A stretch of 64,000 nt of DNA from the NCBI GenBank assembly GCA_043760135.1, contig JAYUPL010000007.1, positions 64,106 to 128,105 on the forward strand, written 5' to 3'. The translations under genes were made by a program, and so were the position numbers. Below, one piece after another: positions 22,093 to 61,429 of the stretch. Numbering within the stretch: position 1 is the first letter of the stretch; each line of letters opens with the position of its first letter. The DNA comes from Candidatus Parcubacteria bacterium. Its GTDB lineage: Bacteria; Patescibacteriota; Minisyncoccia; Phycocordibacterales; CAIZLB01. The notes beneath the pieces were generated by a model. The model did not search any database, was not told where the DNA came from, and worked only from the letters and a program-made list of their open reading frames with translations.

Positions 22093-23847
22093 ATGACCAA
22101 CCTAAATTTTTGTGGTAAAATCAGGGATATGCAAGACGAAAAGAAACAAAACGACATAACCTATTTTGGTGTTACTGATGCCCGTGGAAAACAAGTAAAA
22201 TTCGGTATCAGAAAAGAGGACCGTCTTCGTCATATGTATGCTATTGGTAAAACTGGTATGGGTAAATCAACTTTACTTGAAAATATGGCCATTCAAGACA
22301 TTCAAAATGGTGAAGGAATGGCTTTCCTCGACCCACACGGTAAAACCGCTGAATTGCTCTTAGAATTCGTTCCAGAGCATCGTATAAAGGACGTTATATA
22401 CTTTGCACCTTTTGATCTAGAGCACCCCGTAGCATTGAACGTGCTCGAAGATACAGCACTGGGAGATGAATCATCATCAAGTATTCGATCACAATTTATA
22501 GTGTCAGGTCTGATGTCAACCTTTAAGAAAATTTGGAAAGATCAATGGTCAGCTCGTATGGAGTATATTTTGAACTATACACTTTTAGCTTTATTGGAAA
22601 TTCCAGAAGCGACACTTTTGGACGTTAACCGTATGCTCTCAGATAAGACATTTCGTAAAGACGTGATTGATCGACTGAAAGAGCCAACTGTAAAAGCCTA
22701 TTGGGAAAAAGAATTTGCATCGATGACCGACAAGATGGTAGCCGAAGCTGTACCAGCTATTCAAAACAAAGTAGGACAATTTATTTCAAATGCTTTGATT
22801 AGAAATATTATAGGTCAAACAAAATCCTCATTCGATTTTAGACAAGCGATGGATGAGAAAAAAATAATTATTTTTAATCTTTCTATTGGACGTATAGGAG
22901 AAGATGCAGTAAACCTATTGGGATCTCTCTTTGTTACAAAAATATACCTTGCAGCCATGAGTCGTGCTGATATGACTGATAGAGAAATGAAGGACGTTCC
23001 AAACTTCTACTTGTACGTGGATGAGTTCCAAAATTTTATCAATGATTCATTTGCTCAGATTTTGTCTCAAGCTCGTAAGTACAAACTCGGACTTATTGTT
23101 GCGCACCAATATGTAAAGCAAATGTCTGAAATAGTTCATGATGCTATCTTTGGAAACGTCGGGACAATGATTGCGTATCGTATTGGTGCTGACGATGCCG
23201 ATGCATTTGAAAAAGAATTTAAACCAACTTTTTTACCTGAAGATTTTACAAACATTGGTCGTTTTCAAATGTATCTTAAACTTATGATTGATGGAGTAAC
23301 TTCGCCAGCTTTTTCTGCAACGGGTATGGGTCCATGGCCAGAACCAGAGCAAAGTTTTGTGAAAGAGATTATTGAATCATCACGTGCTCTTTATTCACAT
23401 CCAAGAAAAGATGTAGAGGCTCATATTTTAAAGTGGACATTGGGTGGAGATAGGGGCGGTAAAGCTGAGGGTTCTCAACCTAAACCAACAATAGATCAAC
23501 CAAGAAGAATGGAACAACCTCGAACTGAGCCAAGACGTGATGAAAGGCCACGAGAAATAAGTCGCGATCAAAATCGAGAGCCTCGAAGGGAACCTGTTCG
23601 AAATGAAATACGAAATGATAGACCAAGAACAGAATCAAGACCTCCTATGGATCGTCCTGTGCCATTGCATAACCCATTCAAAGTAGCTTTTAAAGAGATA
23701 GAAAAAGTTGATGAACCTGTTAAACAAAAAGAACCTGAAATCATTGATGTGACAAAAGTTCCAGAAATAACATTTGAACCAAAACTTGTAGAAAGAAAAG
23801 AGGTTGATGAGGATACTCTTAAAGACGTTTTAGGTTTGAAGGAGTAA
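22093..23847 (+). CDS. VirD4/TraG/TraD-like type IV coupling-protein ATPase (soluble) with R/E/P-rich low-complexity C-terminal tail
   Basis: Walker A GKTGMGKST; FLDPHG (DPKG-like); YVDEFQNF Walker B; tail RRDERPREISRDQNREPRREP. Confidence 0.5.
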   Translation: MTNLNFCGKIRDMQDEKKQNDITYFGVTDARGKQVKFGIRKEDRLRHMYAIGKTGMGKSTLLENMAIQDIQNGEGMAFLDPHGKTAELLLEFVPEHRIKDVIYFAPFDLEHPVALNVLEDTALGDESSSSIRSQFIVSGLMSTFKKIWKDQWSARMEYILNYTLLALLEIPEATLLDVNRMLSDKTFRKDVIDRLKEPTVKAYWEKEFASMTDKMVAEAVPAIQNKVGQFISNALIRNIIGQTKSSFDFRQAMDEKKIIIFNLSIGRIGEDAVNLLGSLFVTKIYLAAMSRADMTDREMKDVPNFYLYVDEFQNFINDSFAQILSQARKYKLGLIVAHQYVKQMSEIVHDAIFGNVGTMIAYRIGADDADAFEKEFKPTFLPEDFTNIGRFQMYLKLMIDGVTSPAFSATGMGPWPEPEQSFVKEIIESSRALYSHPRKDVEAHILKWTLGGDRGGKAEGSQPKPTIDQPRRMEQPRTEPRRDERPREISRDQNREPRREPVRNEIRNDRPRTESRPPMDRPVPLHNPFKVAFKEIEKVDEPVKQKEPEIIDVTKVPEITFEPKLVERKEVDEDTLKDVLGLKE

Positions 23848-49046: not shown

Positions 49047-49391
49047 ATGGAATTATTTTCAAAACTAAATGCTTGTATGGGGACAAGTATACAGGCTCGA
49101 CAGAAAGGTGGTTGTGGATGGGCAGAGTTAGGTCCGATTATAAATGAGTTACTATCCAACATTTTACTTCTTGGTATTTTTATTGCAGTGATAATGATAA
49201 TGTATGCTGGTTATATACTAGTTAACGGTCAAGGTTCACCAGACTCTCGTAGTCGTGCTAAAAAAATATTTATAGGAATAGTGATTGGTATGATTTTACT
49301 TGTTGGATCATATTACATAGTTGAATTTGTATTGGATACATTGGGTGTAAGTAATGACTATAGAAACAATTCACTCATTAAAAGAAATTAA
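49047..49391 (+). CDS. Small two-helix membrane protein, TrbC/VirB2-pilin-like topology (paralog 1 of 5)
   Basis: TM1-loop(NGQGSPDSRSRAKK)-TM2 hairpin shared with the four following ORFs. Confidence 0.45.
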   Translation: MELFSKLNACMGTSIQARQKGGCGWAELGPIINELLSNILLLGIFIAVIMIMYAGYILVNGQGSPDSRSRAKKIFIGIVIGMILLVGSYYIVEFVLDTLGVSNDYRNNSLIKRN

Positions 49392-49406
49392 TATATAATT
49401 ATACAT

Positions 49407-49874
49407 ATGAAAAACATCAAGAAAATAGTAATCATGGTTATAATATCGGTAGTATCGTTTGGTTCTGTTAGTGTTTCGGCTCTAAGTCCCGACAGGCAGG
49501 CAGAGGTTGATGCTGCGGCTGCAAGAAATAATCCTACTACCAATAATCCATCAAATAATACATCAAACACAAACACCCCTGCTCGTCCACTATTGAATCC
49601 TCCTCTTGGAAATGGAACTGCTGGAGGATCTGATCTAAAAACAATCTTCTTAAATGTGCTCGATGTTACTCAAGTTATTATCATCATGGTTACAACTCTA
49701 TATCTTATATTGGCTGGTTTTATGTTTGTGACGGCAAAAGGAGATCCAGGAAAACTCAAAAAAGCCAGAGATGCATTACTTTGGGGTCTTATCGGTGCTG
49801 CTTTGATATTGTGTGCTGAGGTGTTGGCTTACGGTATAGGTGACACGGTTAAAGAAGTCTTTAAAGGAAAATAA
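49407..49874 (+). CDS. Small two-helix membrane protein, pilin-like (paralog 2 of 5), signal peptide plus N/T/P-rich region
   Basis: TAKGDPGKLKKARDALLWGLIGAALIL conserved hairpin. Confidence 0.45.
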   Translation: MKNIKKIVIMVIISVVSFGSVSVSALSPDRQAEVDAAAARNNPTTNNPSNNTSNTNTPARPLLNPPLGNGTAGGSDLKTIFLNVLDVTQVIIIMVTTLYLILAGFMFVTAKGDPGKLKKARDALLWGLIGAALILCAEVLAYGIGDTVKEVFKGK

Positions 49875-49904
49875 TTAAAATCATAAACTAATCAAAAAAA
49901 ATAT

Positions 49905-50459
49905 ATGAAAAAATTGGTAATACTAATAATGATGCTGATACTGAGTGTAGGAGTGAGTGCGGATACGACAAATTCAAACGGAGTAGGCGATGATACAAAT
50001 TCGAATGGAGTAGGTGATACAACCAACTCAAATGGTTTAGGAGATGACACTCCAAATGACTATGATCCAAAAGTAGATCCAAATTTCTATAAGGACGGGA
50101 CTCCAAAAAGTACAAGTAAGGCAGGTTTTGATCCATCAAATTTAAATAAAAATCCTTTTTCATCTGGATCTGAAGGGGTTCCAAAGCTTTCTTTGTTAGG
50201 TATAGTGTACTGGCTCGCAGGTTTGATGAATCAGTTGGTCTATTTGATTATTGGAGCATCACTTGTTTGTTTTTTATATGGAATATTTAAACTATCATTT
50301 GTAGATGGACAAAAACCAGAAGCTCGAGAGCAAGCACGAAAATTTATGTTCTGGGGAATCGTTTCTCTGTTTGTAATGATGTCAGTTTGGGGATTGGTTA
50401 ATATACTAAAACTTTCACTCTTCGGTCCTGGAGACTTGATTATACCAAGACTTAAGTAG
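49905..50459 (+). CDS. Small two-helix membrane protein, pilin-like (paralog 3 of 5), signal peptide plus TNSNGVGDD repeats
   Basis: VDGQKPEAREQARKFMFWGIVSLFVMMSVWGLVNIL. Confidence 0.45.
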   Translation: MKKLVILIMMLILSVGVSADTTNSNGVGDDTNSNGVGDTTNSNGLGDDTPNDYDPKVDPNFYKDGTPKSTSKAGFDPSNLNKNPFSSGSEGVPKLSLLGIVYWLAGLMNQLVYLIIGASLVCFLYGIFKLSFVDGQKPEAREQARKFMFWGIVSLFVMMSVWGLVNILKLSLFGPGDLIIPRLK

Positions 50460-50513
50460 TATAATATGTGCATCATTATAAATAATAAAAAATATTAAAA
50501 AACACTAAACAAA

Positions 50514-50906
50514 ATGAAAAAAATACTATCATTACTCATCACACTGTCACCAACAGTTTTACTGGCTAACGACGACCAAGCACCTATCGCAAGAACTGTT
50601 GATGGACTGCTTAACTGGCTTATATACATAGCTGGACGAGCACTACCTCTTCTTATTCTAGCTGCTCTTGTACTATTTTTGTTCGGTATAGTAAAAAGAT
50701 TCTTCTGGGCAAAAGATACAGCAGATAAAGGTGAAGCTGGAAGATATATATTGTGGGGTGTGGTTGCTTTGTTTGTTATGGTATCAGTTTGGGGACTTGT
50801 AAACGTTTTAAGAGGTTCATTTAATCTAGATAACAACAACGTGCCTCTCGCACCTGCTGTTCCTGTACAAAATGCTCCATATGCAGCTCCTACAACAAGA
50901 CCATAG
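50514..50906 (+). CDS. Small two-helix membrane protein, pilin-like (paralog 4 of 5)
   Basis: AKDTADKGEAGRYILWGVVALFVMVSVWGLVNVL. Confidence 0.45.
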   Translation: MKKILSLLITLSPTVLLANDDQAPIARTVDGLLNWLIYIAGRALPLLILAALVLFLFGIVKRFFWAKDTADKGEAGRYILWGVVALFVMVSVWGLVNVLRGSFNLDNNNVPLAPAVPVQNAPYAAPTTRP

Positions 50907-53770: not shown

Positions 53771-54154
53771 ATGAAAAATCTTATTAAAGTCTATTATTCA
53801 CTAGATCAAGGTATTCCTATTGACCATCATTTAGAATTAATCAGGATTCATGATAGTTGCGATATTTATATTTCCAGAAAGGCATTGAAACATTTTGTTG
53901 AAAGCCGAAAAAAAGAGATGATTGAAACCCGTAATCAGAAAGAGATCTGTGATAAGTTATGTTTTGCTGTTAAAAATGTAATTTTTACATATATAAAGTA
54001 TGACAGAATTGAACAATCATCACTAAATAGGTTGATATATATAAAATATTTTAAAAAATTGCGAAATTCCAGTTTAGGTATTGTGGTAGAACGAGTTGAA
54101 GACAGGAGTGAAATTTGTTCAATACATTTCAAGAAACACAAAAAACCACCTTAA
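53771..54154 (+). CDS. Hypothetical small protein, 'ISRKALKHFVESR' family (paralog 1)
   Basis: Paralog of 60741..61085 (HLELIRI...ISRKALKHFVESRKKEM vs FLELVFV...ISRRALKHFVESRSSEM); stop codon lies in a terminator loop. Confidence 0.5.
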   Translation: MKNLIKVYYSLDQGIPIDHHLELIRIHDSCDIYISRKALKHFVESRKKEMIETRNQKEICDKLCFAVKNVIFTYIKYDRIEQSSLNRLIYIKYFKKLRNSSLGIVVERVEDRSEICSIHFKKHKKPP

Positions 54155-54166
54155 AGTGGTTTTTTG
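54139..54166 (+). terminator. Rho-independent terminator (AAAAAACCACC-ttaaa-GTGGTTTTTT), stop codon in the loop
   Basis: Read from the sequence. Confidence 0.7.
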
Positions 54167-54175
54167 TGAGACTTA

Positions 54176-54283
54176 GGATGACGGCAAGGACAAATAATTA
54201 CTTACTTGTGTTTTCATCCATGAGTACGTTGATATTTCTACCAAGTCCGCAGCACAGCCGATTGTTAATTTTCTGTCGTTAAG
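54176..54283 (+). other. Conserved about 110-nt 3' tail (copy 1): GGATGACGGCAA...TTTCATCCATGAGTACGTT...CCAAGTCCGCAGCACAGCCGATTGTTAATTTTCTGTCGTTAAG; possible structured RNA
   Basis: Three conserved blocks shared with 61112..61214; GGATGA/TCATCC form a stem around a variable loop. Confidence 0.4.
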
Positions 54284-54316
54284 TCTTATGTAACAATATT
54301 ATCAAAAAAAATAACC

Positions 54317-54802: not shown

Positions 54803-55309
54803 ATGAAAAACACAAAAAAATACCAAAAGGGCACTTCTTTTTTGCCAAGGCAAAACAAGTCGCAAAAAGGGTTTACCCTTATCGAAATATTAGTAGTGAT
54901 CGGTATTATCGGGATCCTGGCCACGGTGGTTTTGGTGGCAGTAAATCCGAGTCGTCAATTTAAACAAGCAAGAGATTCGCAACGGGTAGCGAACGTGAAT
55001 ACTATATTGAATGCTCTCGGTCAAAATATTGCTGACCACCAAGGTAACTTGTTTTGTGACGGGGCAATCACCCCTTTAGATTATAACTCTACACATGAGA
55101 TAAGTAGTACTGCCGGAGCCTTTGATGTCGCAAACTGCTTGATTCCTGAATATTTACCTAAGCTGCCATATGACCCTAAAAATGATACTTCCCACTATAC
55201 GAATGAAGATGAATACAATACTGGATATAACTTGTCTGTTGATGATGGAGGACGTCTCACAGTAACTGCTGCGGGGGAGATACAATCAGAAATTTCAGTA
55301 ACAAGGTAA
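54803..55309 (+). CDS. Type IV pilin (prepilin-type N-terminal cleavage/methylation domain)
   Basis: KGFTLIEILVVIGIIGILATVVLVAV class III signal peptide. Confidence 0.8.
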   Translation: MKNTKKYQKGTSFLPRQNKSQKGFTLIEILVVIGIIGILATVVLVAVNPSRQFKQARDSQRVANVNTILNALGQNIADHQGNLFCDGAITPLDYNSTHEISSTAGAFDVANCLIPEYLPKLPYDPKNDTSHYTNEDEYNTGYNLSVDDGGRLTVTAAGEIQSEISVTR

Positions 55310-55362
55310 TCTGAACGATATCACTTGAATTAATATTCTATTAATGTTATATTGTATGAATT

Positions 55363-55485
55363 ATGAAATTATTATCGTCACTCAAAAAAGCAGATCTTCG
55401 CCAAGGTGAATTTATTGTACGTCGTGGAAAGCATCTATATCGTATTAATAAGGCAAATCGTAAACGAAACGCAAAACAAGGCTAG
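55363..55485 (+). CDS. rpmJ: 50S ribosomal protein bL36, Cys-less (zinc-independent) type; not in the ORF track
   Basis: MKLLSSLKKADLRQGEFIVRRGKHLYRINKANRKRNAKQG versus [37 protein letters not shown]. Confidence 0.65.
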   Translation: MKLLSSLKKADLRQGEFIVRRGKHLYRINKANRKRNAKQG

Positions 55486-55500
55486 GCCTTGTTTTTGTTT
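55476..55500 (+). terminator. Terminator (CAAGGC-ta-GCCTTG followed by TTTTTGTTTT)
   Basis: Hairpin overlapping the rpmJ stop codon. Confidence 0.5.
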
Positions 55501-55726
55501 TCTATCGACCTTTCAGACCGGTCGGTGAGTCAGCCTGTGAATTGACTCTAGTGTAAAAGACATCATGATTTCTCGAGTTATGATGTCTTTTAGTATCCCC
55601 ATAATGTCCTATATGTCCTTGATAACAAAGGCTAAGCTAATTTAGACTTTATGCAGTTGTCCTTGACACAGCACTTGACTCTTATTTGACTTATATTAAC
55701 AAACATGATACAAATATGAAAACATT

Positions 55727-56779
55727 ATGGCAAATACTTCAACACCTACATTTTCATTTAAGGTGAAAAATGTAACTAAAAAATTATTATCAGCTATACC
55801 CGAACGCTCAAGGGTTATTATCTCACACCGCTTTGGACTTGATAAAAGTACTGAGAAAATGACTCTTGAAGCTATCGGTGAAAACTATGATATTACTCGT
55901 GAAAGAGTAAGACAGATAGAAGCTAACTCTATAGTGACTATTAGAAAGTCTCAAGTGTTCAAAGAAGAGTCTAAGGTCTTTGAAGAGTTGGCTTTATATA
56001 TCAAAAAAATAGGAGGTATTATCGCTGAGCATGATTTGCTGAACCATCTATCAAAAGATGAGTCAACTCAAAATCATTATCATTTCCTATTGATCATCGG
56101 AGATCAATTTAAGAAAGAGAAGGAAACTGAAGAATTCCACCACCGATGGCATGTTGATTCAGAGCTATCTAAGAAGATTCACGATGCTTTGAAAAAACTA
56201 TATACAAACTTAGATGACAACTCATTGATCCCTGAAAACGAGATGATCAAATCTTTCATGGATAATGTGAAGGATATATCAGATGAATTGAAAAATGACG
56301 AAATCTCAAAGAGATGGTTGCGTATTTCAAAACATATCGATAAGAACCCTCTTGGTGAATGGGGTAAATCAGCTTCAACTAATGTAAAGGTGAAAGGTAT
56401 TAGAGATTATGCTTACCTTGCAATGAGAAAACATGGATCTCCTGTTCACTTTAAAGAAATCGCTAAATTGATCCAAAATGTGTTCGGTAAAAGAGCACAT
56501 GAAGCTACAACTCACAATGAGCTTATAAAAGATAATCGATTCGTTCTTGTAGGACGTGGTCTATATGCCTTGGCTGAATGGGGATATGTGTCAGGTGTGG
56601 TAAAAGACGTTATAGTTAAGGTTTTGGGTAAATATGGTCCTATGACAAGAGAAGAGATATTCGATAAGGTGATGAAGGAGAGGTATGTTAAAGAAAACAC
56701 TATATTGGTCAACTTGCAAAACTCATCGGCTTTCAAAAAGGATTCTTCAGGCAAATATCACGTAATAGCTGAAAAATAA
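55727..56779 (+). CDS. DNA-binding protein: N-terminal sigma-70 region-4-like HTH plus C-terminal HARE-HTH (RNAP delta-subunit-like) domain
   Basis: ERSRVIISHRFGLDKSTEKMTLEAIGENYDITRERVRQIEANSI (sigma region 4); GSPVHFKEIAKLIQ...HNELIKDNRFVLVGRGLYALAEWGY (HARE-HTH). Confidence 0.55.
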   Translation: MANTSTPTFSFKVKNVTKKLLSAIPERSRVIISHRFGLDKSTEKMTLEAIGENYDITRERVRQIEANSIVTIRKSQVFKEESKVFEELALYIKKIGGIIAEHDLLNHLSKDESTQNHYHFLLIIGDQFKKEKETEEFHHRWHVDSELSKKIHDALKKLYTNLDDNSLIPENEMIKSFMDNVKDISDELKNDEISKRWLRISKHIDKNPLGEWGKSASTNVKVKGIRDYAYLAMRKHGSPVHFKEIAKLIQNVFGKRAHEATTHNELIKDNRFVLVGRGLYALAEWGYVSGVVKDVIVKVLGKYGPMTREEIFDKVMKERYVKENTILVNLQNSSAFKKDSSGKYHVIAEK

Positions 56780-56859: not shown

Positions 56860-57237
56860 ATGCGTATATTAGGTATCAATCTTAACGATAATCAAAGAAT
56901 AGAGATGGCATTAACAGCTGTCTTTGGAATTGGACGTTCACGTGCACACACTATATTAGATAAAGCTGGCATCGAGTATGGAGCAAAAGCAAAAGATCTT
57001 TCTGTTGATGACGAAAATAAGATTCGTTCAGAGATCGAGGATTTCAAACTAGAAGCTGATCTAAAAAGAGAGATCGGTACAAACATTAAAAGATTGAAAG
57101 ATATCAAATCTTATAGAGGTACAAGACATGCGAAAAGATTACCTGTACGTGGACAACGAACAAAATCAAATGCTCGTACTCTTAAAGGTGTTAAAAAGAC
57201 TATGGGATCTGGTAAAAAGAAAGAGACTAAGAAATAA
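56860..57237 (+). CDS. rpsM: 30S ribosomal protein uS13
   Basis: MRILGINL..NQRIEMALTAVFGIG; basic C-terminus. Confidence 0.9.
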   Translation: MRILGINLNDNQRIEMALTAVFGIGRSRAHTILDKAGIEYGAKAKDLSVDDENKIRSEIEDFKLEADLKREIGTNIKRLKDIKSYRGTRHAKRLPVRGQRTKSNARTLKGVKKTMGSGKKKETKK

Positions 57238-57268
57238 AATAAATTAAACTAAATCAACATTCATTATT

Positions 57269-57685
57269 ATGGCAAAAACAATAGTTAAAAAAACAGCTAA
57301 AGATGCAAAAGCTTCATCTAACAAGCTAAGTAAAAGAAAAATGGCATATGCTATTTTGAATATTCAATCTACATATAACAACACAAAAGTTGTATTAACA
57401 GATGAAAAAGGAAATCCAGTAGCATCTTCATCATCAGGATCACTTGGATTCAATGGTGCTAAAAAAGGTACACCTTTTGCTGCTGCTAAGATCGGTGAAG
57501 TACTGGCTGATAAAGCTATCATGATGGGAGTTAAGGAAGTTGGTGTTGTTATTAAAGGGACAGGTTCAGGTCGTGAGTCAGTGGTGAGATCATTTATATC
57601 AAAAGGTATTTCAATCGATACTATAAAAGATAGAACTCCTGTGCCACACAATGGTCCAAAACCTAAAAAGCCTAGAAGAATATAG
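57269..57685 (+). CDS. rpsK: 30S ribosomal protein uS11
   Basis: GSLGFNGAKKGTPFAAAKIGEVLADKAIMMGVKEVGVVIKGTGSGRES. Confidence 0.9.
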   Translation: MAKTIVKKTAKDAKASSNKLSKRKMAYAILNIQSTYNNTKVVLTDEKGNPVASSSSGSLGFNGAKKGTPFAAAKIGEVLADKAIMMGVKEVGVVIKGTGSGRESVVRSFISKGISIDTIKDRTPVPHNGPKPKKPRRI

Positions 57686-57744
57686 CAATAGAATCTAGTT
57701 GAGAATCTAATAATTAAAAGTATTTAAATAATAAATCAAACAAT

Positions 57745-58350
57745 ATGAAAATCGGTCCAAAATTTAAAATAGCAAAACGCCTAGGTGCTCCAATCTTTGA
57801 GAAAACTCAAACTCAAAAATTTAGAGTAAAAATGGAAAATGCTCCAAAGAAAAAAGGTAAGAAGAATGTATCTTCATACGGTCTTCAGTTGATTGAAAAA
57901 CAAAAAGCTCGTTTTACATATGGTATTACAGCCGGACAATTTGGAAGATATATCAAAGAAGTTATTGATTCTAAAACTGTTTACGGTCCAGAAGAACTAT
58001 ATAAAAAATTAGAAACAAGATTGGATAATGTTGTATATCGTATGGGACTATCTAACACAAGACGTTTTGCAAGACAAATCGTATCTCACGGTCATATCTT
58101 GATCAACGGTGTTAAAAACACTATTCCATCAGCCGTAGTGAGAGCTGGAGATATTATTTCAGTACGTGAGGGAAGTAAGAAAACAAAAACTTTCCACGAT
58201 TATTCAGAAAGATCTAAGAGTTTGACTATTCAAGACTGGTTATCATTTGACGGAGACAAGATGACAGGAAAAGTTGTTAAACTACCGACACTAACAGGAC
58301 AAGATGTATTATTTGATTTAGGTCAAGTGATAGAGTTCTCAAAGAGATAA
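57745..58350 (+). CDS. rpsD: 30S ribosomal protein uS4
   Basis: LETRLDNVVYRMGLSNTRRFARQIVSHGHILINGV (S4 domain). Confidence 0.9.
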   Translation: MKIGPKFKIAKRLGAPIFEKTQTQKFRVKMENAPKKKGKKNVSSYGLQLIEKQKARFTYGITAGQFGRYIKEVIDSKTVYGPEELYKKLETRLDNVVYRMGLSNTRRFARQIVSHGHILINGVKNTIPSAVVRAGDIISVREGSKKTKTFHDYSERSKSLTIQDWLSFDGDKMTGKVVKLPTLTGQDVLFDLGQVIEFSKR

Positions 58351-58389
58351 GATACATTAATAATTTATTAAATAAAAATAAACAAAATT

Positions 58390-59367
58390 ATGAACACATC
58401 AATAGTATCACCATCAAAACCAAAAATTATCAAAGAAACTGATAATAAGGGTTCTTATGAAATAGGTGGATTGTATCCAGGATATGGACATACACTTGGA
58501 AACTCTCTAAGAAGAATCATCCTATCATCACTTCCAGGTGCTGCGATAACTTCTATCAAGATTGCAGGTATTCCTCATGAATTTTCTACTATCAAAGGTA
58601 TAAAAGAAGATGTTATTTCAATGATCTTAAACCTAAAGAAGATCAAATTTTCTATAGTGGCAGGTGAAGAAATCGTTCTCACTCTTAAGAAAAAAGGTAT
58701 AGGTACGGTTACTGCAGCTGACATCGATGTTGCCGGTCAAGTTGAAGTTTTGACTCCAGATCAGCATATTGCAACTATCACAGAATCAGATGCTGTTTTA
58801 CAAATGGAAATCACTCTATCAAACGGTATTGGCTATGTTTCTAAAGAAGTATTGCAAAAAGAAAGAGTACCAGTTGAGTCTATTGCGCTTGATGCAGCTT
58901 TCTCACCTATTGTAAACGTGTCATATGATGTAGATCAAATGCGTGTTGGTGATAGAACTGACTTCAACAGACTTATTATAAACATCGAAACTGATGGTTC
59001 AGTCACCCCAAAAGCCGCGCTTGAGAAATCAATAGAAATAATGATTTACCAACTAAAAGCTATTATCGACTTCCAAGATGTTGAAGTTGTTAAAGAAGAA
59101 GTTGAAAGTAAAAAAGAGGAATTTAAAGATGACGATGAAAGTAAGCTAGATAAAGACGTTCTTGACGATGTTTTGAAAACTAGAATCGAGTCACTTGAAA
59201 TAAGTCAAAGAACTATCAATGCACTTATCGAAGCCAATATCAGAACTATCGGTGGATTGATCAGGAAGAAAGAGAAAGATCTACTCGATGTTGATGGAAT
59301 GGGCAAGAAAGGGCTAGATGAATTGAAAGAAATATTAGCTAAATTTGATTTAACAATTAAAGAATAA
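58390..59367 (+). CDS. rpoA: DNA-directed RNA polymerase subunit alpha
   Basis: GHTLGNSLRRIILSSLPGAAITSIKIAGIPHEFSTIKGIKEDV; C-terminal HhH domain. Confidence 0.9.
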   Translation: MNTSIVSPSKPKIIKETDNKGSYEIGGLYPGYGHTLGNSLRRIILSSLPGAAITSIKIAGIPHEFSTIKGIKEDVISMILNLKKIKFSIVAGEEIVLTLKKKGIGTVTAADIDVAGQVEVLTPDQHIATITESDAVLQMEITLSNGIGYVSKEVLQKERVPVESIALDAAFSPIVNVSYDVDQMRVGDRTDFNRLIINIETDGSVTPKAALEKSIEIMIYQLKAIIDFQDVEVVKEEVESKKEEFKDDDESKLDKDVLDDVLKTRIESLEISQRTINALIEANIRTIGGLIRKKEKDLLDVDGMGKKGLDELKEILAKFDLTIKE

Positions 59368-59408
59368 TACTTGATTTTTAACAGTATTTAAGATATATTT
59401 ACAAGACT

Positions 59409-59759
59409 ATGAGACATCACAATGCAAACAGAAAATTTAATAGAGGCAGAAATCAGAGAAAAGCTTTGATCAGATCTTTGGTGCGTGAACTTTTTGTACA
59501 CGGAAAAATAGAGACAACTTTAGCTAAAGCTAAAGAGTCAGCTCCATATGCAGAAGATTTTATCACAAAAGCTCGAATCGATACTGTTGCATCTCGTCGT
59601 GATGTTGCAAGAAGAATGGCCAATAACGACATAGTTGGAAAATTGTTCTCAGAAATTGCTCCAAAATATATCGGAAGAAATGGTGGCTATACAAGAATTA
59701 TCAAGAAAGGACCAAGACAGGCTGATGGCGCTCTTATGGCTATCATAGAATTAGTATAA
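59409..59759 (+). CDS. rplQ: 50S ribosomal protein bL17
   Basis: MRHHNANRKFNRGRNQRKALIRSLVRELFVHGKIETTLAKAKE. Confidence 0.9.
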   Translation: MRHHNANRKFNRGRNQRKALIRSLVRELFVHGKIETTLAKAKESAPYAEDFITKARIDTVASRRDVARRMANNDIVGKLFSEIAPKYIGRNGGYTRIIKKGPRQADGALMAIIELV

Positions 59760-59770
59760 TAAATAACACA

Positions 59771-60115
59771 ATGAAATACACAATCGACGCAACAAATAAA
59801 AGATTAGGTAATTTGGCACAAGACGTGGCTAAACACCTTATGGGTAAAAACTCAGTAGACTTCGCCAAAAACGTAGTTGCTGATGTTCAGGTTTTGGTTA
59901 TCAACGCTGATAAGCTTGATATCACAGATAAGAAAAAAGATGAGAAATATTATCTAACATACTCAGGATATCCAGGTGGACAAAAGAAAGAGTTCCTAGG
60001 ACACTTACTTGAAAGAAAAGGAGTGGAGGAAGTTATTGTTCGTGCTGTATCAAGAATGTTACCAAAAAACAAACTAAGAGATAGAATGCTTTTAAATATA
60101 GAAATAACTAAATAA
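59771..60115 (+). CDS. rplM: 50S ribosomal protein uL13
   Basis: L13-like sequence ([21 protein letters not shown]...). Confidence 0.85.
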
Positions 60116-60120
60116 TAATT

Positions 60121-60528
60121 ATGGCAACAAAATCAACATCAAAATATTATGAAGCAGTAGGAAGAAGAAAAACATCTTCTGCACGCGTTCGTATTACACC
60201 AGCTGCAAAAACAAGTATGGTTATAAACGATAAAGATCACACAGAATATTTTAAAACTAAAGAATTACAAAATCTTTCAATCGAGTCTTTGGTAAAAACT
60301 CTTCCTGAAAAAGGCTTTGAGATTACTGTTAAAGTTACAGGTGGTGGTATCAATGGTCAAGCCGAGTCAGTAAGACTTGGTATCGCAAGAGCACTTGAGG
60401 CTTTTGATGCAGAACTAAGAGCTCCTCTTAAAAAAGAAGGATTTCTAACGAGAGATGGAAGAGCTAAAGAAAGAAGAAAATTCGGTTTGAAGAAAGCGAG
60501 AAAGAGTAAGCAATGGTCAAAGCGTTAA
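60121..60528 (+). CDS. rpsI: 30S ribosomal protein uS9
   Basis: [19 protein letters not shown]...[25 protein letters not shown]. Confidence 0.9.
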
Positions 60529-60740: not shown

Positions 60741-61085
60741 TTGATTGCCGATTTTTTAGAATTGGTATTTGTTTGTAAACTGAACAGTAAAGACGTATCT
60801 ATCTCTAGGAGGGCATTAAAGCACTTTGTGGAGAGTAGGTCTAGCGAAATGGCAGATAGTTACGAAAACAACAGTATCTTGGAAAAGATGTATTACATAA
60901 TAGATAATGTCGAAGATGTGCTCAATATGTATGATGTCTTTCAAACTATGAATGGCAGGTATTATTTTACTAAGCATTATTGGAAACTAGATAAACCCTC
61001 AATAAGAATAGTTTTAGAATTGGTAGATAATCACTTTGAAATAGTTACGATGTATTATAAGAAAACTAAAAACACCACCGAATGA
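60741..61085 (+). CDS. Hypothetical small protein, 'ISRRALKHFVESR' family (paralog 2; TTG start, lacks the N-terminal ~17 aa of paralog 1; possibly degenerate)
   Basis: Paralog of 53771..54154; the frame has no ATG; stop codon in a terminator loop. Confidence 0.4.
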   Translation: MIADFLELVFVCKLNSKDVSISRRALKHFVESRSSEMADSYENNSILEKMYYIIDNVEDVLNMYDVFQTMNGRYYFTKHYWKLDKPSIRIVLELVDNHFEIVTMYYKKTKNTTE

Positions 61086-61099
61086 ACGGTGGTGTTTTT
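61068..61099 (+). terminator. Rho-independent terminator (AAAAACACCACCG-aatgaa-CGGTGGTGTTTTT)
   Basis: Read from the sequence. Confidence 0.7.
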
Positions 61100-61111
61100 A
61101 GTTGTAGTCTG

Positions 61112-61214
61112 GGATGACGGCAACGCCTATTTTTCAATAGACACTTTCATCCATAAGTACTTTGTCTTTCAACAAAGTCCGCAGCAAGCCGATTGGTTAT
61201 TTTCTGTCCTTCAG
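61112..61214 (+). other. Conserved about 105-nt 3' tail (copy 2): GGATGACGGCAA...TTTCATCCATAAGTACTTT...CAAAGTCCGCAGCAAGCCGATTGGTTATTTTCTGTCCTTCAG
   Basis: Block-wise identical to 54176..54283 with variable spacers. Confidence 0.4.
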
Positions 61215-61429
61215 ATTACGTTGTTTATTTTAGCAAAATATATTTTATTGTCAAATTTTGTAAAAATAGCACCCTATAAAAGCGAAAAAGTGCCTGACAC
61301 CGCTTAGGGCACAGGACCTTTTTCTTCTGTGTTTTTATAATATCAAATCTCTGATTGTTGTCAAATTTTACCCCATAAAAAACAAAATCCGACAATGGAG
61401 TTCTTACATTTTTAGTATATAATAGACGC

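Follow-up and report, generated by a model that had tools for sequence, protein, structure and literature searches.

The window, a stretch of 64,000 nucleotides from a Candidatus Parcubacteria bacterium, encodes a 350-aa protein combining a sigma region 4-like helix-turn-helix (HTH) domain with four winged helices. Our tentative reading, which may be correct, is a predicted DNA-binding transcription factor that recognizes -35-like TTGAC boxes and probably regulates its own gene; we infer its binding, specificity, and autoregulation. As judged from sequence comparisons, the family is at least class-wide, spread across the tiny-celled Paceibacteria (Parcubacteria) lineage of Patescibacteria. As the strong class-wide conservation is combined with a primary-sigma -35-reading domain with invariant residues and with a strong consensus promoter, the protein is a prime candidate for a general transcription or chromosome factor of this lineage.

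Gene and local layout

The gene, hereafter the sigma4-HARE gene, was located by the ORF calls at 55727-56779 on the forward strand, at the coordinates given in the preliminary description, and the local order was pilin-rpmJ-sigma4-HARE gene-rpsM.

55363..55485 (+): rpmJ-like gene, 40-aa Cys-less (type-B-like) ribosomal protein L36 (Pfam/NCBIfam profiles, codon comparison)
55554..55592 (+): second long hairpin, perfectly paired, with an outer stem of 13 bp (not conserved in the 91%-identical relative L087)
55727..56779 (+): sigma-region-4 + 4x winged-helix (HARE-HTH type) protein, 350 aa
56782..56810 (+): promoter-like site of rpsM, directly after the stop codon of the sigma4-HARE gene, TTGATT ... 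TGTGCTATGCT (relaxed extended -10 scan)
56860..60528 (+): rpsM, rpsK, rpsD, rpoA, rplQ, rplM, and rpsI, the alpha operon with the genes that continue it (order shared by L005, L087, L088, and L091-L093)

The preliminary description had the rpmJ-rpsM order broken by the 350-aa gene, and this was borne out by three more distant Paceibacteria (L091-L093), which have infA-rpmJ-rpsM; in these, a canonical CxxC...C..H L36 stops 16-26 nt 5' of rpsM. The gene had also been described as lying within the alpha operon, immediately upstream of rpoA, and as flanked by its own hairpins. In fact, rpsM, rpsK, and rpsD intervene between it and rpoA. The rpsM gene retains its own conserved promoter right after the stop codon of the sigma4-HARE gene, with the -35-like element and the extended -10 kept in the relatives L087, L005, and L088; thus, the sigma4-HARE gene lies beside the operon and is not a part of it. 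Strong hairpins were found upstream (RNA fold z = -6.4), as described, but none was significant downstream (z = +0.6), and no terminator was found between the gene and rpsM.

The region from rpmJ to the sigma4-HARE gene was variable, with a PGA_cap/DUF192 gene in L005 and L088 and none here or in L087. The hairpin at 55554..55592, which may mark the site where this gene is missing, was present as a single copy in the window when sought as a repeated element. Rfam returned no known RNA element for the rpmJ-to-gene or gene-to-rpsM spacers, and neither a second copy of the sigma4-HARE gene nor infA nor a canonical L36 was found within the window.

Conservation of the protein family

Database searches with the 350-aa protein gave >8000 matches, and 566 clusters at 50% identity reached E <= 1e-30. 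The best 120 matches showed 62-98% identity, and all but a few truncated fragments covered 94-100% of the query. Thirty-four homologues at 61-95% identity were conserved over the entire length, and full-length conservation persisted to 35% identity. Family members were about 345-351 aa long and had the same two-domain architecture, with both Pfam domains present in 140/140 diverse members (32-91% identity). At least 549 stretches from genomes of species representatives contained an orthologue. No paper on the combination of sigma-4 and winged helices in CPR (Patescibacteria) was found in the literature.

Domain architecture and structural model

The sigma region 4-like HTH and the HARE-HTH domain proposed in the preliminary description were both recovered with Pfam, as Sigma70_r4 (PF04545; residues 20-74, 43.7 bits against a GA of 24.1) and PF05066 (residues 228-285, 34.9 bits against a GA of 25.9). 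The AlphaFold (AF2) model of the protein (pLDDT 96.7, pTM 0.88) consisted of a sigma region 4 HTH followed by four winged helices (W1-W4) of H-E-H-H-E-E topology, which W3 displays at residues 225-283.

55763..55966 (+): sigma70 region-4-like HTH (regions 4.1 + 4.2), codons 13-80 (Pfam, sigma70 profile, Foldseek)
55970..56371 (+): winged helices W1 (82-143) and W2 (145-215), codons 82-215, acidic to neutral (AF2 secondary structure, hhalign)
56399..56575 (+): W3, the Pfam HARE-HTH, codons 225-283, the best-conserved segment of the family (HNELIKDxRFVLVGRGxYAL)
56600..56764 (+): W4, second basic HARE-like winged helix, codons 292-346 (hhalign, AF2)

Profile comparison with hhalign gave probabilities of 69% for W1 and W2, 90% for W2 and W4, and 91% for W3 and W4 (E about 1e-6), and by this sequence comparison the four winged helices are related to one another. 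The C-terminal domain was a folded basic winged helix with a pLDDT above 90, and no alpha-CTD (PF03118) match was found in the 350-aa protein. The whole protein carries a net charge of +10 (pI 9.3; family mean +13), and the sigma-4 domain, W3, and W4 are each basic.

In the profile alignment, residues 11-72 were matched to residues 541-601 of E. coli sigma70, including TRERIRQIE, and Foldseek matched the domain to sigmaA region 4 at an rmsd of 1-2 A and 33-37% identity. Five residues (R58, E59, R60, R62, and Q63) were invariant across 140 family sequences; R58/E59/R62/Q63 align with sigma70 R584/E585/R588/Q589, which we take to be the -35 element contacts (sigmaA region 4/-35 DNA structure 1KU7). 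Residues 46-190 also gave a weak profile match with the non-conserved region of sigma70, at 8.7 bits (E 7.9), which was dismissed for lack of significance.

Promoter and TTGAC boxes

The upstream region of the sigma4-HARE gene contained a consensus promoter and an array of direct TTGAC boxes, the third of which (start 55686) is the -35 element of the promoter.

55663..55691 (+): three direct TTGAC boxes, starts 55663, 55675, and 55686, spacing 12 and 11 bp
55686..55714 (+): promoter of the sigma4-HARE gene, TTGACT, 14 nt, TGATACAAA (extended -10; relaxed extended -10 scan)

This promoter ranked among the best consensus promoters in its neighbourhood. The boxes, unlike the variable bases between them, were kept in L087, L005, and L088, and in L005 and L088 they persisted within the 3' end of an upstream coding gene. 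In 78/87 genomes, the 200 nt upstream of the orthologue contained the pattern TTGAC-N14-17-TGnTA. Additional TTGAC boxes phased at 11-12 bp (doublets or triplets) were present in 16/87 genomes (18%; loci phylogenetically related to varying degrees), compared with 0.08 on average and at most 2 in shuffles. Of the 30 phased TTGAC doublets in 1.07 Mb, 21 were upstream of the sigma4-HARE gene, and a phased second box was observed for 10/57 promoters of this gene and 0/32 other strict promoters (Fisher p = 0.012). It is equally conceivable that the boxes are bound by sigma-A itself or by another factor.

The basic, monomer-sized protein consists of a domain derived from primary-sigma region 4 and, C-terminal to it, four winged helices that are related to one another and form a rigid array, the third being a classical HARE-HTH. 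Under the proposed mechanism, the sigma-4-like HTH would read -35-like TTGAC(A/T) hexamers through the residues that sigma70 uses, and the basic W3 and W4 would supply additional DNA contacts; these two may also have a protein-binding role. At the consensus promoter of its own gene, the protein would bind to the phased TTGAC boxes and compete or cooperate there with the sigma-A holoenzyme, resulting in autoregulation.

A wider version of this reading, which we consider somewhat unlikely, is that of a Paceibacteria-universal general transcription factor in which a free-standing sigma domain 4 with four HARE-type winged helices is predicted to read TTGAC independently of the holoenzyme. To our knowledge, no other bacteria have a universal factor composed of sigma domain 4 and HARE-type winged helices. 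Patescibacteria (CPR) have tiny genomes with few recognizable regulators, and their transcription control is experimentally almost unstudied. If the wider version is true, the factor could sit on promoters or pre-mark them, use phased TTGAC arrays to control its own promoter, or serve as a trans-acting sigma-4 docked on the beta-flap, and it would represent a new promoter-recognition layer in organisms with very few classical regulators.

Genomic neighbourhood in relatives

The position beside rpsM was common only to relatives at >= 83% identity. In 75/82 neighbourhoods of more distant genomes (49-69% identity), the orthologue preceded DUF8128, usually in the order leuS-orthologue-DUF8128-yceG, and the recurrent neighbours were leuS, DUF8128, yceG, and mnmA; rpsM was beside the orthologue in none of the 82. 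No homologues of leuS, DUF8128, or yceG were found in the window, which differs from the typical neighbourhood in position only. The conserved neighbour DUF8128 gave no functional hint and no match in the Pfam copy used. As only the relatives at >= 83% identity share the rpsM position, the place of the gene next to the alpha operon reflects a local rearrangement, which brought it between rpmJ and rpsM in one genus-level clade. The attractive argument from synteny that the gene is "next to rpoA" thus collapsed when relatives were checked, which is a methodological lesson in itself.

Cys-less L36

The same genus-level clade appears to have also switched L36 from the zinc-ribbon type to a Cys-less type. 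The Cys-less L36 of the preliminary description was supported: the product of the 40-aa ORF at 55363-55485, MKLLSSLKKADLRQGEFIVRRGKHLYRINKANRKRNAKQG, contains no Cys and lacks the zinc-ribbon (C+) CxxC ... C ... H ligands. In the sister lineages L091-L093, L36 has C11, C14, C27, and H33, and its gene is located between infA and rpsM. The change from the zinc type in these three sister genomes to the Cys-less type here is a small, clean C+ to C- change at or beside a ribosomal protein locus.

55325..55353 (+): promoter-like site of rpmJ, TTGAAT, 17 nt, TG-TATATT (consensus scan 9/12 with TG; relaxed extended -10 scan; kept in L087)
55466..55502 (+): rpmJ intrinsic-terminator hairpin, stem overlapping the stop codon, followed by a T-run (kept in L087)

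The product scored 25.9 bits with Pfam Ribosomal_L36 (PF00444; GA 26.1), and its best NCBIfam match was "type B L36" (NF002021; E 1e-9, 38 bits, under the model cut-off of 70). In favour of L36 were the length of 40 aa, the C-terminal ...KQG, the purifying selection, the location near the alpha operon, and a terminator and promoter of its own, the predicted promoter being the site at 55325..55353. The rpmJ-like gene was overlooked by gene callers in relatives. Its product was 88-95% identical in L005, L087, and L088, and the codon comparison indicates that it is under purifying selection, because 15-17 synonymous and 2-5 non-synonymous differences were counted to these three relatives.

Alternative explanations

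The preliminary description had proposed an RNAP-associated accessory factor, either a lineage-specific subunit or a competitor of sigma region 4, and we regard this as doubtful. In one variant, the sigma-4-like domain would dock on the beta-flap tip. The N-terminal domain does span the whole of region 4 (4.1 + 4.2) of group-1 sigmas, the beta-flap-binding part, its best Foldseek matches were sigmaA-r4/beta-flap-tip chimeras, and the conservation of the family is as high as is typical of core machinery. The alignment to one chimera, 8d5v_D, spans 83 columns and hints that helix 76-94 may fill the groove in which the flap-tip helix binds in 8D5V/7KUF. However, what is invariant is the set of sigma region 4.2 residues that read DNA, and the pTM of 0.88 predicts that the sigma-4 domain is part of a rigid body and does not hang free on a tether. 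In the other variant, the HARE-type winged helices would bind beta' like the N-terminal domain of delta, a domain that binds RNAP according to PMC7749165. W3 matched the NCBIfam model of RNAP delta (TIGR04567) weakly (E 2e-7), but the score of 30.9 bits is under the cut-off of 42. The delta C-terminal region has a net charge of -47 (as given in PMC7749165), whereas the window protein, at +10, is without an acidic C-terminal region; a delta-like role is therefore not supported, and identity with the RNAP delta subunit (RpoE) was rejected on the score, the basic charge, and the different architecture. The gene does adjoin the rpoA operon in this clade, but synteny was rejected as evidence for an RNAP link, as the adjacency is clade-specific. 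An RNAP-linked role is possible given the sigma-4 domain itself; the gene position lends this role little support.

Identity as a true sigma factor was also rejected. There is no region 2, and no Sigma70_r2 or r3 match was obtained from Pfam at E <= 1; the NCBIfam and PDB profile matches to sigma factors were restricted to positions equivalent to region 4. With no sigma region 2, no acidic delta-type tail, and a basic charge, the protein is thus neither a sigma factor nor RNAP delta.

A nucleoid-associated protein or modified-DNA reader appears improbable. Here, the HARE-type winged helices would sense, for example, N6-methyladenine and the sigma-4 HTH would provide general DNA affinity, leading to global chromosome organization or methylation-dependent regulation instead of TTGAC-specific control. 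According to PMC4738411, which cites Aravind and Iyer 2012, HARE-HTH domains are associated with N6A restriction-modification systems and have been suggested to read modified DNA. The four tandem winged helices, the basic protein, and the high expression implied by the consensus promoter would suit this explanation. However, no methyltransferase or nuclease was fused or conserved adjacent among the neighbours (leuS, DUF8128, yceG, and mnmA), and the sigma-type residues that contact bases are strictly invariant, which speaks for sequence-specific reading.

It is very unlikely that the protein acts as a trans-acting "split sigma" supplying region 4 to a primary or alternative sigma without region 4 in reduced genomes. 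The domain most closely resembles region 4 of group-1 sigmas, and the family looks universal across the lineage. Against this, the RpoD proteins of Patescibacteria are, as far as is known, full length. A search of the window and of about 1 Mb of related loci gave no rpoD; there, tblastn with sigma70 regions 2-4 matched region 4 only.

The explanation that junk or a mobile element without host function recently entered the alpha operon, to which the clade-specific position and the variable upstream region might point, is refuted by the conservation data (the >8000 homologues with their full-length conservation, the orthologues in species-representative genomes, and the conserved promoter) and by the lack of transposase or phage matches; the absence from all relatives that the preliminary description associated with junk did not occur, as the 34 homologues demonstrate. 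An origin from a defence system or phage was rejected, as PADLOC and PHROGs matched the sigma-4 segment only.

Comparison with known systems

The sigma-4 domain has the same fold and signature over about 62 residues as region 4 of group-1 sigma70-family proteins (RpoD/SigA), with RFGxD in 4.1 and TLExIGxxxxxTRERxRQIE in 4.2. Unlike group-1 sigmas, the window protein is without regions 1.2, 2, and 3, and thus without a core-binding or -10-melting module. Its sigma-4 domain is N-terminal instead of C-terminal, is followed by four winged helices, and is predicted to be rigidly packed rather than tethered. With the delta subunit (RpoE) of Firmicutes RNA polymerase, it has in common a HARE-HTH-type winged helix with the D-x-RF...G...W motif (matching PF05066). 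It differs from delta in its 350 aa, charge of +10, missing acidic tail, combination of four winged helices with a sigma-4 HTH, and occurrence in another phylum.

Aravind and Iyer reportedly described in 2012 bacterial HARE-HTH proteins combining features of the RNAP alpha-subunit and sigma factors. Compared by description, these proteins have in common with the window protein a HARE-HTH tied to a sigma-derived module and a predicted role in transcription. Among annotated proteins, the window protein is a full-length member of the uncharacterized family named "sigma factor-like helix-turn-helix DNA-binding protein" by PGAP in Patescibacteria, and it differs from most members in genomic position only, being encoded beside rpsM instead of upstream of DUF8128. 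The rpmJ-like product lacks the zinc-ribbon cysteines, as do the type-B (Cys-less, "C-") L36 paralogues such as E. coli YkgO; its gene, unlike theirs, is located near the alpha operon and not at a zinc-regulated locus.

Domain architecture, family and predicted structure

The 350-aa product of the sigma4-HARE gene matched Pfam Sigma70_r4 at residues 20-74 (43.7 bits; GA 24.1) and HARE-HTH at residues 228-285 (34.9 bits; GA 25.9). As both matches lay above the Pfam GA, the two domain calls of the preliminary description were correct. NCBIfam returned only the C-terminal ends of sigma factors, together with a sub-threshold RNAP delta match. The family was found to be very large, with at least 8000 candidates in a word-indexed protein search; the best 120 of these matches showed 62-98% identity, nearly all with both domains, and several members carried the PGAP name 'sigma factor-like helix-turn-helix DNA-binding protein'. 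An exhaustive search of 50%-identity representatives yielded 566 clusters at E <= 1e-30, and among the cluster matches listed, nearly all were 320-390 aa long and aligned end to end. Both domains were present in all 140 sequences of a diverse alignment spanning 32-91% identity, and at least 549 orthologues were confirmed among the 600 pattern matches listed for species-representative genomes. By sequence, the protein is a bona fide member of a catalogued but uncharacterised Patescibacteria family. No publication on the sigma4 + HARE architecture in CPR was found in the literature; prior computational notice is possible in a 2012 HARE-HTH paper, the abstract of which reportedly describes bacterial proteins that share traits both with sigma factors and with the RNAP alpha-subunit.

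The HARE region was uncertain in the AlphaFold model from a shallow alignment (pLDDT 81). With the 140-sequence alignment, the model reached a pLDDT of 96.7 and a pTM of 0.88, and comprised five domains:

Residues 13-80: sigma-4 domain, four helices
Residues 82-143: winged helix W1
Residues 145-215: winged helix W2
Residues 225-283: winged helix W3, the Pfam HARE-HTH
Residues 292-346: winged helix W4

W1-W4 are probably all HARE-type repeats; profile-profile comparison of alignment slices gave probabilities of 91% (W3 and W4), 90% (W2 and W4), 69% (W1 and W2), and 55% (W1 and W4). Foldseek against the PDB matched region 4 of sigmaA (8D5V, 7KUF, 4G6D, and 1KU7; rmsd 1-2 A, 33-37% identity) and the loosely similar tandem winged-helix arrays of UFL1/DDRGK1, RPC62, and Dcc1 (TM about 0.2), and found no solved structure with a sigma4 + four-winged-helix architecture. 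A BFVD structure search gave no better match than the PDB ones.

In the family profile, residues 11-72 corresponded to E. coli sigma70 541-601, i.e., the full regions 4.1 and 4.2, the aligned segment including RFGID in region 4.1. The only invariant N-terminal positions in the 140 sequences were R35, L47, G51, R58, E59, R60, R62, and Q63, of which R58, E59, R62, and Q63 align with sigma70 R584, E585, R588, and Q589. As these four are invariant and their sigma70 counterparts contact the -35 hexamer in 1KU7-type complexes, the sigma-4 domain appears to retain the equipment for reading TTGACA-like DNA. With a net charge of +10 (family mean +13) and a pI of 9.3, the protein is basic; the domains contribute +6 (sigma-4), +6 (W3), +4 (W4), -5 (W1), and -1 (W2), and charge analysis revealed no acidic tail.

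Gene order and synteny

The genome is that of a low-GC Patescibacteria member, and its nearest relatives with a name go by the labels Candidatus Parcubacteria, Paceibacterota, or Pacebacteria. The features around the gene are as follows:

54803-55309 (+): prepilin-type gene, upstream end of the gene order
55325-55353 (+): promoter-like site of the rpmJ-like ORF (sequence scan)
55363-55485 (+): rpmJ-like ORF, 40 aa (Pfam and NCBIfam L36 matches, codon comparison)
55466-55502 (+): rpmJ terminator hairpin, overlapping the stop codon (RNA folding)
55554-55592 (+): second hairpin, perfect 13-bp (RNA folding)
55663, 55675, and 55686 (+): starts of three TTGAC boxes in 12- and 11-bp steps, the third being the -35
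55727-56779 (+): sigma4-HARE gene, 350 aa (Sigma70_r4 + HARE-HTH), 240 bp after the 40-aa ORF
56860-60528 (+): rpsM, rpsK, rpsD, rpoA, rplQ, rplM, and rpsI, directly after the sigma4-HARE gene

The 40-aa product, MKLLSSLKKADLRQGEFIVRRGKHLYRINKANRKRNAKQG, contains no cysteine and scored 25.9 bits against Pfam L36 (GA 26.1) and E 1e-9, under the model cut-off, against NCBIfam 'type B L36'. Compared with three relatives, its ORF showed 15-17 synonymous and 2-5 non-synonymous codon differences; as the former far outnumber the latter, a purifying pattern, the ORF is by this comparison a genuine coding gene. Its earlier identification as a Cys-less L36 missed by ORF calling is probably right: gene callers overlooked it, it is also uncalled in the close relative L087, and just two clusters occurred in a collection of 5.8 billion proteins. 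In three more distant Paceibacteria, rpmJ is of the canonical zinc type, lies between infA and rpsM (L091:4869-4985, L092:4859-4975, and L093:4859-4975), and stops 16-26 nt upstream of rpsM; neither infA nor a canonical L36 was found within the 64-kb window. The interruption of the infA-rpmJ-rpsM order and the Cys-less L36, as read from these loci, are real and particular to the window's clade, in which this L36 is separated from infA, with its own promoter-like site and terminator, while L36 is still of the zinc-ribbon form in the three sister genomes.

The gene had also been described as flanked by its own hairpins. Upstream hairpins do exist, RNA 55465-55610 folding much more stably than shuffles (z = -6.4), but there was no significant RNA structure downstream (z = +0.6). 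The rpmJ terminator is kept in L087 (91% identical), the second hairpin is not kept there and has no other copy within the window, and in the clade members L005 and L088 a PGA_cap/DUF192 gene fills the spacer; the upstream hairpins are a property of rpmJ or of a variable spacer.

We compared 87 distinct neighbourhoods of the gene, window included and three duplicate loci dropped. The gene lay directly upstream of rpsM only in the window, L005 (83% protein identity), L088 (86%), and L087 (91%). The 82 remaining neighbourhoods came from more distant genomes (49-69% identity), and none of them showed rpsM adjacency; in 75/82 the gene preceded DUF8128 (PF26449, roughly 416 aa, e.g., L001:6108-7358), usually with leuS before and yceG and mnmA after. 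On a 771-kb contig (L003, L091), the gene and rpsM share a strand about 13 kb apart, so a local rearrangement suffices to explain the new adjacency. Immediately 3' of the gene's stop, an rpsM promoter-like element is kept within the clade (TTGATT/TTGCGT, then a TGTGCTATGCT-type extended -10), and the gene lies beside the alpha operon, not inside it. Read-through into rpsM is possible, since no terminator was found between them.

Three short contigs with the Paceibacteria-typical leuS-gene-DUF8128 order (L011, L064, and L074) are filed as Thermodesulfobacteriota, Spirochaetaceae, and Azotimanducaceae MAGs and are probably mis-binned; many 'Saccharibacteria' labels of TPA assemblies look doubtful. 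Four tandem small genes matching T4SS_pilin (TrbC/VirB2-like; 49047-50906 (+)) and, elsewhere in the window, a VirD4/TraG-like coupling ATPase (22093-23847 (+)) were observed; the same run of pilin genes precedes the alpha-operon region in L087.

Promoter and TTGAC boxes

Promoters of the genome are generally of the type TTGACA-N14-TGnTAnAAT, to which 11 sites in the window conform strictly. The strong pattern TTGAC(A/T)-N14-TGnTAnAAT, a -35 with an extended -10 (e.g., 10463 +, 18879 -, 43041 -, 52046 -, and 61254 -), helps annotate transcription units in the lineage. Two paralogous units, 78% identical (54125-54305 (-) and 61045-61235 (-)), each show a consensus TTGACA/extended -10 promoter followed by a terminator-like hairpin with a T-run, and share a conserved stretch of about 150 nt, GACAGAAAAT.A.CAATCGGCT.TGCTGCGGACTT...ATGGATGAAA...TTGCCGTCATCC. 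They matched no Rfam family; each is a candidate small RNA or a candidate leader containing a tiny ORF. The unit at 54125-54305 overlaps a 127-aa ORF (53771-54154) in antisense.

The sigma4-HARE promoter consists of a -35 TTGACT at 55686 and TGATACAAA at 55706. A comparable promoter precedes the orthologue in 78/87 distinct genomes, and in related DNA totalling 1.07 Mb, 57 of the 89 strict promoter matches were the gene's own promoter. Because its extended -10 (promoter 55686-55714) ends about 12 nt upstream of the ATG at 55727, with no Shine-Dalgarno sequence visible before it, the clade's mRNA may be nearly leaderless; orthologues outside the clade have leaders of 30-90 nt.

The TTGAC boxes are kept in L087, L005, and L088 despite variation in the intervening bases, and in L005 and L088 they fall inside the 3' end of the upstream coding gene. 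Phased doublets or triplets (box starts 11-12 bp apart) preceded the orthologue in 16/87 genomes, scattered over the identity range (shuffled controls: mean 0.08, maximum 2), 21/30 TTGAC-N5-8-TTGAC doublets in the 1.07 Mb lay upstream of the gene, and a phased second box accompanied 10/57 sigma4-HARE promoters vs 0/32 other strict promoters (Fisher p = 0.012), counts that overstate independence because the loci are phylogenetically related. This suggests a TTGAC-binding protein acting at the promoter, for which the gene's own product would be the obvious candidate.

Proposed function

We tentatively favour a DNA-binding transcription factor, in which the sigma-derived HTH would read -35-like boxes, the basic HARE-type winged helices would assist DNA binding, and the protein would autoregulate its own promoter. 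An accessory factor docking on RNAP via the beta-flap or beta' is unlikely, though worth weighing. Operon position had been taken as a sign of RNAP association; both the gene and its domain content are genuine and intriguing, but this argument fails, and adjacency to the rpoA operon carries little functional weight because 0/82 distant neighbourhoods adjoin rpsM. A role in reading modified DNA, or as a nucleoid protein, is less probable still, the former drawing on the link of HARE-HTH to N6-methyladenine systems (PMC4738411). That the protein supplies a sigma-4 in trans to a truncated sigma seems far-fetched; a search for rpoD across the window and roughly 1 Mb of related loci came up empty. 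A junk insertion, barely conceivable, is ruled out by the large, full-length-conserved family with its fixed two-domain architecture.

Compared with known systems, the autoregulatory DNA-binding protein proposed here differs from sigma factors in having no region 2, which rules out a sigma factor, and from RNAP delta, likewise ruled out, in its score under the cut-off, its missing acidic region, and its different architecture.
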